IMG/VR virus record: IMGVR_UViG_3300037512_000782
Span: 252,732-316,731 of that record
DNA from: a virus
Taxonomy: Duplodnaviria; Heunggongvirae; Uroviricota; Caudoviricetes
Strand: one strand, 5' to 3'
Length of the DNA: 64,000 bases
Within the stretch, counting starts at the first letter, position 1. Each line of letters begins with the position of its first letter. The position numbers were made by a program, and so were the translations under genes. Under the pieces are notes generated by a model that was not told where the DNA came from, ran no database searches, and saw nothing but the letters and a program-made list of their open reading frames with translations. Positions 3,062-14,317 of this stretch are shown in pieces.

Positions 3062-3241
3062 ATGTTTAAATTTTTGAAACGGCTGTTCTGCCGTCATCAC
3101 TGGAAACGTAGTGTACAGCGACGGCGCAATTTCAATTATGGATCGACATCGTTTTCGTACTACGACTTCTGTGTGTGCAAGTGTACCAAATGCGGTAAGA
3201 AGAAACTTATGAAACAGTATCACTGGGTCGCAATGAACTGA
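3062..3241 (+). CDS. small Zn-ribbon-like protein
   Basis: LFCRHHW...CKCTKCGK; SD AGGAG. Confidence 0.65.
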   Translation: MFKFLKRLFCRHHWKRSVQRRRNFNYGSTSFSYYDFCVCKCTKCGKKKLMKQYHWVAMN

Positions 3242-3262
3242 CACCGTTCCGGCGGGGCTGCC
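3236..3262 (+). promoter_or_regulatory. cassette element copy 6
   Basis: AACTGACACCGTTCCGGCGGGGCTGCC. Confidence 0.85.
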
Positions 3263-3309
3263 TCGCTGGGTTATTTTCTTTATACAACCAATCAACCAAG
3301 GAGTTAACA

Positions 3310-3906
3310 ATGAAAAGATTGTTCAAGAAGGGCGACAAGGTCAACGTGAGCGGCGACTTGTCCAGTAAGGATTACAACGTGCGCGTTTCTTCTCCGGCTG
3401 TCGTCGATGAAGACCAGAAGACGAGCCGTTCTAACGTGTGGGTGACTATCGCCGAAGTAGACGGCGACCATAACGTGTCGCTCTACATCAAGCCGCGTAT
3501 GCTGTCGCTCGTCAAGGAAGAGCTGCCGCGTATCGAGAGCGACGACACCACTCGTGTCTGGGTCAACGAGGAAGCCGGACTGGTCGTGACGGACTTCTTG
3601 GGTTCTGGTGACAATCTGGACGACGACGACATCAAGCAGGGCTTCCACGCCTACTCGATGAACTCCGTCTACCACTTCGACCAGTTCCCAGAAGAGACGT
3701 TCGACTTCTCCAAGCTCGAAGACGTGAATGACGGCGACCTCGACTATGACGGCGACACTGTGGACTGCTACGACAGCAGCATGACCCTTCTGCACAACAC
3801 CGACGAATACGACAAGAAGGAACACTTCGAAATTATTCTCGGTATGCTCAACGTGACCCAGAAGGACGGCTGGAAACAAGTCGCTGGGCCGTTCTTCAAC
3901 GACTAA
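3310..3906 (+). CDS. hypothetical acidic protein
   Basis: SD after element 6. Confidence 0.8.
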   Translation: MKRLFKKGDKVNVSGDLSSKDYNVRVSSPAVVDEDQKTSRSNVWVTIAEVDGDHNVSLYIKPRMLSLVKEELPRIESDDTTRVWVNEEAGLVVTDFLGSGDNLDDDDIKQGFHAYSMNSVYHFDQFPEETFDFSKLEDVNDGDLDYDGDTVDCYDSSMTLLHNTDEYDKKEHFEIILGMLNVTQKDGWKQVAGPFFND

Positions 3907-10808: not shown

Positions 10809-11363
10809 ATGAAACAGTTTAGCTTGATTATTTTCCATCAGGACGACAGAACCGCCGAATCCGTCGACATGTATCCAGTCGAGAAGGAAGCCATCAACGA
10901 GCTTCACGCTTGGGCACGTAAGAAGATCGAGGAAGACGAGTACTTCAGAAGCCGTCTGGAAAACGTCTACTTCGACGGCACGATGTTCGAGGGCGATCTG
11001 GACGACACCGAAGCATTGCTGGCTGCCCTCAGAGAGACGACCGACAGCGTGTCCTTTGAAACCACGGGCGGCGACTACATCGACTGCTCCATCTGGCAAC
11101 ACGAATGCAACTTCGTTGCCGTCCACGGCGCACAGTATGACAACCAGAACGGCGATCTCCGTTCCTTTGTCAAGATTTGCGCCACCGTCGGCGAGGCGAT
11201 CCAGTTTGTCATCGACGACTTCAAGAGGCTCGCCGAGGCATACAAGGAACAGTCCGACGGTATCACGTTCCCCACGGCGAAAATGCTGCTCCAGACCAAG
11301 TGCGCGGAGTCGCCGAACACCTGGCCCGTCTGGACGAAGTGGACGATCTCGACGGAACCGTAA
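10809..11363 (+). CDS. hypothetical protein
   Basis: SD after element 18. Confidence 0.8.
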   Translation: MKQFSLIIFHQDDRTAESVDMYPVEKEAINELHAWARKKIEEDEYFRSRLENVYFDGTMFEGDLDDTEALLAALRETTDSVSFETTGGDYIDCSIWQHECNFVAVHGAQYDNQNGDLRSFVKICATVGEAIQFVIDDFKRLAEAYKEQSDGITFPTAKMLLQTKCAESPNTWPVWTKWTISTEP

Positions 11364-11390
11364 GACTGGCCGCCAGCTGGCGGGACTGCC
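11364..11390 (+). promoter_or_regulatory. cassette element copy 19
   Basis: GACTGGCCGCCAGCTGGCGGGACTGCC; stem AGCTGGCG/CGCCAGCT. Confidence 0.85.
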
Positions 11391-11444
11391 TCGCCAGCTT
11401 ATTCATTCTACACAACCAACCAAACCAATCAAGGAGATTTAATC

Positions 11445-11891
11445 ATGGGTTATACAAACTACTGGAAACCGAACAAGGCAAAGATCGACGCTACCGAGAG
11501 CTTCCCCAAGGAAATGCTCGAACAGATGGAAAAGGTCAGAGCCAAGTTCAACGACGGTGTCATGTCCAAGGAGATCCAGTCCGACCTGATCGGATCCGTC
11601 ACGCTCGGCGATACAATCTGCCTCACTGGAACGTGCGAAGGGTTTGAGTTCGATCTGTGCAAGGATTCCAGAACGGGCGACCGTATCGGCGTCGACTCTT
11701 GGAAGTTCTGCAAGACGTGCCGCGAGCCCTACGACATGGCGGTCAAGTGCTTCCTCATGCTCCTCCAGCGCTACGGTTTCATCACCGAATGGAGCCACGA
11801 CGACAACAACCGCTGCGATACCTACAAGGACGCGATCAAGTTCGCCAAGAAGTGCGGCATCGACACTCGCGGTGTCTACGCCAAGCGATAA
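11445..11891 (+). CDS. conserved phage protein (MGYTxYW...FCKT..PYD type)
   Basis: Motif pattern; SD. Confidence 0.8.
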   Translation: MGYTNYWKPNKAKIDATESFPKEMLEQMEKVRAKFNDGVMSKEIQSDLIGSVTLGDTICLTGTCEGFEFDLCKDSRTGDRIGVDSWKFCKTCREPYDMAVKCFLMLLQRYGFITEWSHDDNNRCDTYKDAIKFAKKCGIDTRGVYAKR

Positions 11892-11894
11892 GGA

Positions 11895-12046
11895 TTTGCC
11901 CTACTCCCTGGGGCAGCCGACGGTGGCCTGGGACTAACACACCCAGCCACAACACACACCGCCGCCGTCGGCAAAATATTTTCTACACGCAGCGGGTTGT
12001 GTATCGGCCTCGACGGGTGCTGCGTGTCCTCCTTACCGTCGAGGCC
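11895..12046 (+). ncRNA. Structured non-coding leader upstream of the tRNA-like RNA
   Basis: Stems GCCGACGGTGG/CCGCCGTCGGC (11916-11972) enclosing CTGGG/CCCAG, and perfect GGCCTCGACGG/CCGTCGAGGCC (12006-12046); no ORF with SD. Confidence 0.4.
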
Positions 12047-12050
12047 ACAA

Positions 12051-12171
12051 GGGTCGATAGTATAACGGCAAATCACGCCGGACGGGCAAATCAGACAGTT
12101 GCGGCTCGCGAGGAACGGCTGTCTGGGAACCTGGCTTTCCGGAGATGTTGGTTCGAATCCAGCTCGGCCCA
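12051..12171 (+). tRNA. tRNA-like RNA with a 55-nt structured insertion replacing the anticodon loop; identity unassignable; CCA not encoded
   Basis: Acceptor GGGTCGA/TCGGCCC + A73; D-arm TAGTATAACGGCAAATCAC; anticodon stem CCGGA/TCCGG; T-arm GTTGG-TTCGAAT-CCAGC; 3' end reads ACTA. Confidence 0.65.
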
Positions 12172-12221
12172 CTAAAATTTTAATGCTCCCTGGTTAAACA
12201 GCGCCAGTTGGCCGACGTGCT

Positions 12222-12248
12222 GACTGGCGCTTCTCTCACGGGGCTGCC
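12222..12248 (+). promoter_or_regulatory. cassette element copy 20
   Basis: GACTGGCGCTTCTCTCACGGGGCTGCC. Confidence 0.8.
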
Positions 12249-12288
12249 TCTCTGATCGATTCTATATACACCACCAAGGAGATCTAAC

Positions 12289-12720
12289 ATGTCACGCTTA
12301 AAATTCAAGAAACTTCTGATCGAACATCCGGTTCTATTCCAGTCCAAGACCTTTACCGACGAACTGAAAGACCGTCTCAGCTACTTCGACCAGTTCAGCC
12401 ACCTTCGTTTCGAATACATCGAAACCGATCATGCCGCCGTGCTGAACGCCTTCAACGTGAAGAACACCGTCGGCAACCATTCATGGAACTCGATGCTTCA
12501 GATGGACTTCAAGCCGCAGTCCCAGAACGTCGTCGTCACCATCTTCGCCAAGCAGCTCACCCAGCAGACGACCTTCTCTCTGAAGTACAACCAGAACACG
12601 CTGCAGAAGGCGCTGAAGACCGTCTTCGACATTTGGCACCACGTCGATAGCATCGTCGCTCACCAAGCCCAGATCGAAGAGAACCTTCGAAACATGGGCA
12701 GCATCTTCCTCTACAACTAA
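12289..12720 (+). CDS. hypothetical protein, paralog of 3974-4411
   Basis: SD after element 20. Confidence 0.8.
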   Translation: MSRLKFKKLLIEHPVLFQSKTFTDELKDRLSYFDQFSHLRFEYIETDHAAVLNAFNVKNTVGNHSWNSMLQMDFKPQSQNVVVTIFAKQLTQQTTFSLKYNQNTLQKALKTVFDIWHHVDSIVAHQAQIEENLRNMGSIFLYN

Positions 12721-12732
12721 GGAGATTCTACT

Positions 12733-12924
12733 ATGGCACAGAAATTCAACGTATCCCTCGACGTGACCATCAAGGTCAACACGTCCTACGAAGTCAACGC
12801 CAAGAACGCCGATGCAGCAAAAGAAATTGCACAGGCGGCGGCGATTGCGCGACTCCGCGCAGAACACGCCGATCTGACCAACTCCGCCTACTTGGTGGAG
12901 TCCAGAGTCGTCTCCGTCCAATAA
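12733..12924 (+). CDS. hypothetical protein (63 aa)
   Basis: SD AAGGAG. Confidence 0.75.
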   Translation: MAQKFNVSLDVTIKVNTSYEVNAKNADAAKEIAQAAAIARLRAEHADLTNSAYLVESRVVSVQ

Positions 12925-12948
12925 ACTGCTAACAACAAGGAGCTACCT

Positions 12949-13248
12949 ATGAGATTCGATCCCCTTAACTTCTACGCCTACGAAATGGAACAACAGAAGC
13001 GCAACCAGCAGCGCAACCAGCAGCTTCTCCACAAGCAACTGTTCAACCGCGCATTCCAGCAGCACATTATCGAGAACCAGCACGGCAACATCGTCGTCCT
13101 CGACCACGTCAGAGCAGCGAACCACTTCAACCATCACCCGGACCTGTTCCTCACGATCCCGTTCAACTACGACTACCTCTGCCATGACAAGGAAGCCCTC
13201 GAACGGACGCTGAACGAAGCATGGCGTCAGACGAATACCCCGATTTAA
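12949..13248 (+). CDS. hypothetical Gln/Asn/His-rich protein
   Basis: SD AAGGAG. Confidence 0.7.
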   Translation: MRFDPLNFYAYEMEQQKRNQQRNQQLLHKQLFNRAFQQHIIENQHGNIVVLDHVRAANHFNHHPDLFLTIPFNYDYLCHDKEALERTLNEAWRQTNTPI

Positions 13249-13273
13249 ATTTTTAATGCTCCGTGGTTGGAAA

Positions 13274-13306
13274 GCTCCAGATCCTTCGGGATCTGGGGCA
13301 TTTTTT
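13274..13306 (+). terminator. intrinsic terminator
   Basis: GCTCCAGATCC-TTCG-GGATCTGGGGC then A-T6; cUUCGg tetraloop. Confidence 0.85.
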
Positions 13307-13324
13307 GTGCCGACGTCCCCAACT

Positions 13325-13351
13325 GACTGGCACGGTTCCAACGGGACTGCT
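13325..13351 (+). promoter_or_regulatory. cassette element copy 21 (no own stem)
   Basis: GACTGGCACGGTTCCAACGGGACTGCT. Confidence 0.8.
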
Positions 13352-13362
13352 AAAATTTTTTA

Positions 13363-13391
13363 TTGACAGACCACACGCGGTATATTATATT
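13363..13391 (+). promoter_or_regulatory. sigma70-type promoter
   Basis: TTGACA-N17-TATATT. Confidence 0.75.
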
Positions 13392-13424
13392 TGTACCACA
13401 CACCCACGCAACCAAGGAGACCCT

Positions 13425-13928
13425 ATGAACCGTGAATGCTTCGGCTTAATAACCAAGGAAACCAAGAAGTATCTCAAAGACCCCAACTTCGTCGTGTTCG
13501 GATATGTCCAGTCCAAGCTCGGCCTCGACAAGAACGCCGTGACGGAAGCCCTCAAGGACGCCCAGGGAATGAGCGTCACCAAGGTCGCACTCAACTTCCC
13601 CAAGACCGACCTCGAATACATCGTTATCCACTCGAAGCGCTGCTACGCCATGATCCGTCCGGACAAGGACTACCATAGCGGCAAGCTCTTTGTGACCATC
13701 CAGAACTACGAACCGTACGACGACAACCAGTCCATGCTGCCGTCGCCGCACCAGTACACCATCGAAGCGAAGACTGCGCTCGACTTCTACCACGCATTCG
13801 TCAGAGTCCACAACATCCTCGTGTTCAACGACATCGCCGTCAAGGCCCAAGCCGAACTCGCCGAAACCATCGAACAGGTCACCACCAACTGCACCGATGA
13901 CCCGTTCCTCAAGAAAGGATTTGTCTAA
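13425..13928 (+). CDS. hypothetical protein
   Basis: Start moved to the ATG at 13425 after SD. Confidence 0.8.
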   Translation: MNRECFGLITKETKKYLKDPNFVVFGYVQSKLGLDKNAVTEALKDAQGMSVTKVALNFPKTDLEYIVIHSKRCYAMIRPDKDYHSGKLFVTIQNYEPYDDNQSMLPSPHQYTIEAKTALDFYHAFVRVHNILVFNDIAVKAQAELAETIEQVTTNCTDDPFLKKGFV

Positions 13929-14317
13929 TGGCCGACATCAACATCAAAATCAAGGCTACACTGTGCGAGCCAAACCGTGGAACCTTCGACGAATTTCCGG
14001 AAGGAACCAAGATCCGTACCTTCTATATCCGCAACGAAGAGACCGACACCAATGTCACCGCCACGGTGATCTTCTTGCCGGACGGCAACCGTCTCTTCCG
14101 CTACATCACCGATAAGCTCGGACACCGTCTGATGGCATACACTTCCGCCGAAGTCGCCACTATCCACGCCTTCAACTGCTGGCTCTCCGAACACCAAGGC
14201 AAGCTCTACCCGACTGGCGATCATCCGGCGGGACTGCCTCTCGACCAGATTGAAGGGTACGTCGATCAACCTACAACCCACAACCAAGGAGATAACAATG
14301 CCGAATTGGGTAAATAA
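13928..14317 (+). CDS. hypothetical protein
   Basis: TAATG coupling; reads through element 22. Confidence 0.7.
   Translation: MADINIKIKATLCEPNRGTFDEFPEGTKIRTFYIRNEETDTNVTATVIFLPDGNRLFRYITDKLGHRLMAYTSAEVATIHAFNCWLSEHQGKLYPTGDHPAGLPLDQIEGYVDQPTTHNQGDNNAELGK
14212..14238 (+). promoter_or_regulatory. cassette element copy 22 (inside 3' end of upstream ORF)
   Basis: GACTGGCGATCATCCGGCGGGACTGCC. Confidence 0.8.

Follow-up and report, generated by a model that had tools for sequence, protein, structure and literature searches.

The stretch of viral DNA analysed here (the window; 64,000 nucleotides (nt), positions 252,732 to 316,731 of IMG/VR record IMGVR_UViG_3300037512_000782) is part of a 348,092-base-pair (bp) uncultivated jumbo phage record from bovine rumen or gut samples (91% complete according to CheckV). 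At window positions 12051-12171 (plus strand, as for all parts of the gene given below) it carries a gene for a transfer RNA (tRNA)-like RNA in which a 55-nt hairpin arm stands in place of the anticodon loop. On balance, this gene probably specifies a conserved, non-decoding tRNA-derived RNA, whose body would provide processing and stability and whose hairpin arm would be the functional payload. Its tRNA anatomy is conserved in homologues, three of its stems covary, no anticodon loop is conserved, body and insert evolve as modules, and the 3' trailer is of the tRNA type; from these features we infer processing, stability, a role in trans and the nature of the partner. Among the options listed in an earlier model-made reading of the same letters (the original prediction), that of a tRNA-mimic non-coding RNA is thus the one favoured by the conserved and covarying cloverleaf, the trailer and the missing anticodon loop.

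The gene was delimited, in its predicted mature form before CCA addition, by the Rfam tRNA family (RF00005), the covariance model R1 and comparison of homologues. RF00005 was aligned over model positions 1-71 with 40.7 bits (E = 3.6e-5, whole window searched), above the gathering score of 29 bits that serves as the curated cut-off for structural tRNA membership, and the 55 nt were handled as a single insertion; R1 scored the gene at 149.9 bits. The alignment and the sequence bear out the initial description of a tRNA body with a 55-nt insert replacing the anticodon loop. The acceptor stem (12051-12057 paired with 12164-12170) comprises 7 bp with one U·G pair (4:69) and is followed by the discriminator A12171, and U8 and A9 are both present. 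The anticodon stem has 5 bp (12078-12082 paired with 12138-12142), the variable loop is AGAU (4 nt), and the T arm (12147-12163) consists of the stem GUUGG/CCAGC (12147-12151/12159-12163) and the loop UUCGAAU, all as first described. The D arm (12060-12076), whose loop contains the conserved GG, had been likened to those of tRNA-Gly and tRNA-Asp, which proved too generous: the arm is present, but only two of the four positions in its weak stem are Watson-Crick pairs (G10-C25 and U11-A24, then A·C and U·U), a deviation flagged by cmscan. Directly behind the discriminator lies the trailer C-T-A (12172-12174), assigned from the sequence and by comparison with the phage tRNAs. The predicted lack of an encoded CCA, of G3:U70 and of a tag open reading frame (ORF) was confirmed: pair 3:70 is G-C, and ARAGORN at default settings called neither a tRNA nor a transfer-messenger RNA (tmRNA). 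The acceptor stem and T arm (12051-12057 and 12150-12171) are letter-identical to tRNA-Tyr(GUA) in 78 cyanobacterial/Chloroflexi genomes. This match, which is lost in the two other forms of the gene described below, is probably a coincidence or a sign of distant ancestry and was given no weight as evidence for identity.

The insert or payload arm (12083-12137), defined by the Rfam alignment and ViennaRNA folds, is helical, as had been proposed. ViennaRNA predicts an 11-bp distal helix (12091-12101/12116-12126) and a 4-bp proximal helix; in the minimum-free-energy folds the distal hairpin (12091-12126) is closed by a 14-nt loop with the palindrome CUCGCGAG. At the base of the insert, the 3' strand has a 4-nt bulge and the 5' strand an internal loop next to the 4-bp helix, and the two insert ends form a near-direct repeat (CGGGC/CUGGC). 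Neither extra copies of the insert nor complementarity to it were found in the phage genome, and inspection of its sequence revealed no T-loop or acceptor-like top-half shape. A comparison of the payload cores with 596 Gb of prokaryote genomes, aimed at mimicry of host RNAs or CRISPR repeats, yielded 4 and 2 scattered matches in unrelated genomes of high GC content, approximately the number expected by chance.

Homologues were collected from the contigs of relatives of the upstream 148-amino-acid (aa) protein (61 relatives with 45-87% identity in metagenome assemblies) and by a pattern scan of the JGI metagenomes. Window positions 11000-14000 had no match by DNA similarity in the INPHARED phage collection, and scans of IMG/VR with the exact 3' 22-mer of the gene, with a degenerate D-arm/anticodon-stem pattern and with the 3' half of a tRNA from the relative L046 returned nothing; in the same database, the relatives of the 148-aa protein are only ~30% identical and the downstream 143-aa protein has none. 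Approximately 12 distinct copies of the element were recovered from related metagenomic phages, with 53-87% identity in the flanking protein, and every copy occupies the same slot, preceded by the 148-aa gene and a pseudoknot. They comprise a form A of 123 nt (the window, L043, L045, L048, L057, L067, L069, L070 and L075), a form C of 119 nt (L077) and a form B of 115 nt (L058 and seven identical loci). These lengths differ by non-multiples of three, and the element is therefore not coding. The Rfam tRNA model remained below reporting at E 0.1 on form B (L058). The element is cleanly absent from the relatives L046, L050, L071 and L072, with an intrinsic terminator after the pseudoknot in its place in L050 and L071, and no insert-less allele was found among the ~12 variants. 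Some form-A relatives (L043 at 3238-3344, and also L057 and L075) contain an inserted 108-nt segment, with long inverted repeats, exactly behind the tRNA-like trailer. An unrelated 60-kb metagenome contig contains a further tRNA-like sequence with a 69-nt insert between the anticodon-stem strands (L066:1061-1198, minus strand; 27 bits with R1), which may be an ordinary archaeal intron-bearing tRNA.

Covariation was assessed in an alignment of 10 variants (A2) with 500 shuffles and with controls in which the pairing partners were slid. The acceptor and T stems are paired in 100% and the anticodon stem in 97.9% of the cells, a level that was reached by none of the 500 shuffles, and sliding the partners by 1-3 columns left 28-47% of the cells paired. 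Double changes convert 3:70 from G-C to C-G and, in forms B and C, 27:43 from C-G to A-U, while 5:68 occurs as C-G, U·G or U-A, 4:69 as U·G or C-G, and 50:64 as U·G or C-G; the T stem also shows a G-C to G·U change. RNAalifold returned the same cloverleaf stems. U8, A14, the GG and the T loop are fixed across the variants, the letters of the D stem are invariant, and four D-loop positions behind the GG are hypervariable. Such a concentration of variation in the variable pocket of the D loop, which real tRNAs show too, beside a fixed core is the substitution pattern of a working tRNA-shaped RNA. Between form A and forms B and C, the tRNA body is 77-81% identical and the surrounding DNA 68-73%. 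The original prediction had named the lack of conserved homologues with a covarying insert as the outcome that would speak against it. Homologues do exist, but it is the tRNA stems that covary, whereas the distal hairpin does not covary but is replaced.

The insert measures 55 nt in form A, 51 nt in form C and 47 nt in form B, and each form retains an irregular hairpin arm of 47-55 nt that is predicted to stack on the anticodon stem. Forms A and C have a 20-nt apical segment including CUCGCGAG in common, with identical loop and adjacent bases, and the apical hairpin of form B differs and has the loop GCAU; the motifs CAAAU and AACCUG at the junction occur in all three forms. The inserts of A and C are 83.6% identical, as against 42-48% for B and the others (48% for B and C), and the bodies of C and B are 92.5% identical. 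Form C thus combines a B-like body with an A-like insert, and body and insert therefore have separate histories. A K-turn formed by tandem G·A pairs in form C was considered and rejected, since the strand order is wrong.

No anticodon loop is conserved among the variants. ARAGORN, when run with introns allowed as the original prediction had suggested, called the gene tRNA-Ala(GGC), interrupted between positions 31 and 32 by an intron of 48 nt, and gave the same call for L045. Among the variants, however, its result shifts between Ala(GGC), Arg(ACG), Pro(AGG) and nothing at all, even for near-identical sequences. The implied anticodon loop CUGGCUU (12131-12137) has a U at position 37, is partly paired in the predicted folds and does not exist in forms B and C, because 12134-12137 are missing there. 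By reasoning from the sequences, every possible split of the flanks of forms B and C was found to yield no 7-nt loop with U33, and no split of the flanks gives U33 together with a purine at position 37. A decoder would have a 7-nt loop with U33 and a purine at 37 and an anticodon conserved in orthologues; here the 55-nt insert takes the place of the loop, and the only 7-mer with U33 is that of form A. Alanine identity is excluded because pair 3:70 is G-C, and a tRNA-Ala(GGC) is already present among the ordinary tRNAs of the phage.

The phage encodes 42 ordinary tRNAs at genome positions 163-180 kb, among them a tRNA-Thr(AGU) with A34, and the tRNA-like gene lies alone at 264.8 kb, 85-100 kb away, between two co-directional genes of an early-type, hyperplastic accessory region. 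All 42 tRNAs lack an encoded CCA, and in most of them position 1 is directly preceded by TAT and the 3' trailer is N73-C-T-A. The tRNA-like gene has a matching trailer (A-C-T-A), of which A-C-T, the discriminator and start of the trailer, is kept in forms A, B and C; its 5' flank differs from the TAT that is usual in the cluster. The phage also carries genes for the ligase RtcB (16.9-17.9 kb), a Thg1-like 3'-5' polymerase (205.1 kb) and a CCA-adding enzyme (216.9 kb). Neither an Rnl2-type ligase nor a reverse transcriptase was detected in the phage, and a search of it for a T4 Rnl1-type ligase gave no match, with controls that were equally silent, and is therefore uninformative.

In the mechanism that we favour, the transcript would be cut by RNase P at G12051 and trimmed at its 3' end after A12171, after which the phage CCA-adding enzyme could add CCA as for the CCA-less tRNAs. 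The product would then persist as a stable, tRNA-shaped RNA that does not pair with codons. Its body (acceptor, D/T elbow and anticodon stem) would ensure processing, stability and recognition by tRNA-binding proteins, and the arm would act as a specific, exchangeable payload for a putative partner, most plausibly a protein involved in the phage-host conflict over tRNAs or RNA repair. RNase P and RNase Z require only the acceptor/T minihelix and the elbow. The anticodon stem and the long arm are kept although neither is needed by these enzymes, which argues that the arm itself is used. The same architecture is known from engineering: in the tRNA scaffold of Ponchon and Dardel (2007), the anticodon loop is reportedly swapped for a payload RNA, with the chassis conferring processing and nuclease resistance. 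A follow-up of this approach is PMC3753655. The scaffold is a laboratory design, whereas the phage gene would be its natural counterpart. Full-text searches of the literature returned no published description of such an architecture in nature, the closest items being the Lak megaphage tRNA introns and YrlA discussed below.

Several observations weigh against this interpretation. Only two Watson-Crick pairs are found in the D stem, and the folding energy is unexceptional compared with shuffled sequences (z = -1.45 and -1.67); it is the homologues at the same slot with their covarying stems, not the folding energy, that place the element above chance. The variants represent only three diverged lineages, so that few independent events underlie the covariation. 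The form-A loci are 85-96% identical over their whole length, which leaves the comparisons of A with B and C as the informative ones. The evidence for expression is a single contig of low depth, and the RNA library from which it derives may contain DNA. Finally, form A keeps a 7-mer with U33 and the phage has RtcB, so that splicing of this form retains some plausibility.

A first alternative is that the gene is a cis-acting processing handle, whose tRNA shape serves only to attract RNase P and RNase Z, so that the early transcript is cut and neighbouring RNAs receive defined ends, while the released RNA has no role. Such arrangements are known from tRNA punctuation and from MALAT1-mascRNA. The position between co-directional genes, 4-6 nt behind a very stable pseudoknot that could protect a new 3' end, would suit this function, as would the intrinsic terminator behind the pseudoknot in the element-less relatives L050 and L071 and the other odd tRNA-like sequence that fills the slot in L055. 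The needs of RNase P and RNase Z, however, would not select for a covarying anticodon stem (C-G to A-U at 27:43), nor would selection be expected for an arm of 47-55 nt in three forms or for a 20-nt apex identical in A and C, and we therefore regard a pure handle as unlikely.

The original prediction also proposed a decoy for host anticodon nucleases; broadened to a decoy or inhibitor of host defence nucleases or modifiers that target tRNAs, including enzymes of the acceptor end or elbow, this reading is likewise improbable. It would fit the early hyperplastic accessory region, the patchy occurrence in relatives, the replacement of the element by other odd tRNA-like sequences at its slot, and the heavy investment of the phage in tRNA maintenance (42 tRNAs, RtcB, a CCA-adding enzyme, a Thg1-like enzyme and Ro60). 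Anticodon nucleases of the PrrC or RloC type, however, would find no target in an RNA without an anticodon loop, a stoichiometric RNA decoy would be inefficient against an enzyme unless bound without turnover, and the idea is wholly inferential.

The original prediction also listed an intron-containing tRNA, in which a protein endonuclease would remove the insert and the phage RtcB would join the halves to give a decoder (GGC in form A). This reading is weakened to the point of being quite unlikely, although splicing by way of RtcB stays conceivable for form A. In its favour are the Ala(GGC) calls in the window and L045, the near-direct repeat at the insert ends, the presence of RtcB, and a loose likeness to the bulge-helix-bulge motif of archaeal and eukaryal introns, as the 4-bp helix at the base of the form-A insert has unpaired bases to either side, on opposite strands. 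This resemblance is a relaxed one and limited to form A, where one bulge of 4 nt and a 4x3 internal loop stand in place of the two 3-nt bulges of the motif, and forms B and C do not have the 3' bulge. A search for the splicing endonuclease PF01974 gave no match in the 348-kb phage record, whereas archaeal controls matched; to our knowledge, no EndA-type splicing endonuclease occurs in bacteria, and the phage tRNAs look bacterial. Further arguments against an intron are the failure of forms B and C to yield a U33-containing 7-nt loop despite their conserved cloverleaf, the U at position 37, the G3-C70 pair that lacks alanyl-tRNA synthetase identity, the tRNA-Ala(GGC) already encoded elsewhere, the shifting anticodon calls and the lack of an insert-less allele. 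A 168-nt contig from a metatranscriptome library covers exactly 12051-12177 with 4 differences and no gap. It crosses the insert unspliced, which shows that the insert was retained in that library and does not prove transcription. Its flanks differ from the window and fit a form-A relative with a 108-nt segment of the L043 type. No joint across 12083-12137 was seen in four runs, whose contigs are of such low depth that a missing spliced form is not evidence, and the RNA runs covered the leader and trailer little or not at all. Unexplained short introns are carried by tRNA genes of the Lak megaphages, in which short, highly conserved inserts that are not group I introns interrupt the anticodon region (Devoto et al. 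2019, PMC6784885). Both cases concern large gut phages with short inserts in the anticodon region of tRNA genes, but excision of the Lak inserts yields an assignable tRNA, and both insert-bearing and insert-less alleles are known, whereas in two of the three forms described here no anticodon loop can be restored, and no allele without the insert was recovered.

It is very unlikely that the RNA is a Y-RNA-type partner of the phage Ro60 protein, with the arm binding Ro60 and the tRNA-like body tethering another factor. The phage does encode a TROVE/Ro60 protein (473-aa ORF, genome 171.4-172.8 kb), just downstream of at least two, probably three, circularly permuted tRNA-like RNAs that resemble YrlA (L078:1400-3513, genome 170.7-172.8 kb), two of which score 36.5 and 37.7 bits with RF02553, below its gathering score of 69, and it also encodes RtcB. 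One of these Y-like RNAs has a 17-nt T arm in common with the tRNA-like gene. YrlA RNAs are non-decoding and combine a tRNA-like acceptor/D/T module with a long helical arm at the position of the anticodon stem. Enzymes that act on tRNAs recognise these RNAs, and some YrlA RNAs, such as that of M. smegmatis, are cut by RNase P and receive CCA (Chen et al. 2014, PMC4201824). The likeness thus extends to the overall shape of module and arm in a phage that encodes Ro60 and YrlA-like RNAs. YrlA, however, is circularly permuted, with its ends in the arm and the acceptor closed, whereas the phage gene has its ends at the normal acceptor and an arm closed by a loop. The Infernal search against Rfam that had been proposed recovered the tRNA family above its gathering score, but neither YrlA (RF02553) nor an intron family at the locus up to E 10, and the motif GNCGAAN0-1G is found neither near the 5' end of the gene nor in the insert. 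Moreover, the gene lies ~93 kb from Ro60, as opposed to within 4 kb for YrlA genes, Ro60 already has adjacent candidate partners, and, apart from the T arm, the sole similarity to the phage Y-like RNAs is the 5-mer GACAG in form A.

A dead tRNA gene, decaying since the insertion of a palindromic DNA element inactivated it, could account for the weak D stem, the location away from the tRNA cluster and the near-duplicate 5-mers at the insert ends, which resemble a target-site duplication, but is highly implausible and largely refuted by the compensatory changes that maintain three stems where the surrounding DNA is only 68-73% identical, by the intact T loop, GG and U8, by the lack of another genome copy of the insert, and by the complete presence or clean absence of the element in relatives. 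A group I intron was rejected, in line with the original prediction, because the 55-nt insert is far shorter than the ribozyme core (P1-P9, roughly at least 200 nt) and no Rfam intron family matched. The hallmarks of tmRNA are a G3:U70 pair for alanyl-tRNA synthetase, the absence of a D stem, pseudoknots and a tag ORF. The suggested mini-tmRNA was discarded, as the phage gene, which resembles tmRNA in being a tRNA-like RNA without an anticodon, has none of these features, contains a D arm and was not called as tmRNA by ARAGORN.

The pseudoknot in front of the gene is a separate module of the H type (11987-12047, plus strand) with stems of 7 and 11 bp, which ends 4-6 nt before the tRNA-like gene and is conserved in all relatives, whether the element is present or not. 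Its 18 pairs are formed in 97.5% of the cells, double changes occur at 8 of the 18, and none of 500 shuffles reached its score; no match to it was found in Rfam. In one loop it contains CUCCUU, the complement of the phage Shine-Dalgarno sequence AAGGAG. Upstream of it, a further module (11905-11985) has a 12-bp stem that is wholly different in sequence in L046 yet still pairs; a small hairpin, whose loop is of a conserved CUAACAC type, and a CCACAAC tract lie within this stem, and a T-rich box comes next. A 162-aa gene lies between this module and the pseudoknot in L055, and the two modules are therefore separable. Downstream of the gene, a conserved hairpin (12197-12229, plus strand), assigned from sequence and with one compensatory change in form B, overlaps the GACTGG of the cassette that precedes the next gene and is a possible end of the transcription unit. 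This cassette (12221-12285) recurs at more than 30 other sites (genome 233-265 kb), before most early genes, and consists of GACTGG, a hairpin with the invariant loop GGGCTGCC, a T-rich box (TATT...TATACAA) and AAGGAG. It could represent a terminator/promoter or a processing signal. A scan of IMG/VR with a 16-mer of the cassette gave 14 single matches.

Other unusual tRNA-like sequences were found in the relatives. In L055 (3655-3746), the slot behind the pseudoknot is occupied by a different, 92-nt tRNA-like sequence, whose D loop has 21 nt and whose anticodon loop, of 9 nt, holds the palindrome CAGCUG and lacks U33. L046 carries two insert-bearing tRNAs, one (717-845) adjoining an HNH endonuclease gene and the other (1873-1992) with a 45-nt insert in the D loop and 34 bits with the Rfam tRNA model. 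In the former, ARAGORN places the 57-nt insert just 5' of a canonical-looking UUGGGAC loop, a point in favour of the intron reading discussed above. To judge from these sequences, the lineage seems to trade unusual tRNA-derived RNAs at the slot behind the pseudoknot. A bolder proposal, which we regard as tentative and rather doubtful in its full extent, is that rumen jumbo phages use natural tRNA scaffolds, in which the slot behind the pseudoknot would accept interchangeable chassis with swappable payload hairpins in the anticodon or D loop. The chassis would hijack host processing and the payload would neutralise a host factor, in counter-defence or takeover, in a manner distinct from both Y RNAs and introns.

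For annotation, these results are a warning that tRNA finders set to tolerate introns give such genes arbitrary anticodons. The swapping of modules, with different inserts on the same body and different tRNA-like sequences in one slot, suggests a fast-evolving function in host-virus conflict. Phage tRNA genes are usually read as a supply for codon usage or as spares against nucleases, whereas here the handling as a tRNA appears to have been kept and decoding given up. This points to a second use of the tRNA fold by phages, as a carrier for a small structured RNA that is made, trimmed and stabilised by host enzymes. If this is confirmed, the laboratory tRNA scaffold would have a counterpart in nature, and the gene would add a class of tRNA mimics beside tmRNA and the Y RNAs.

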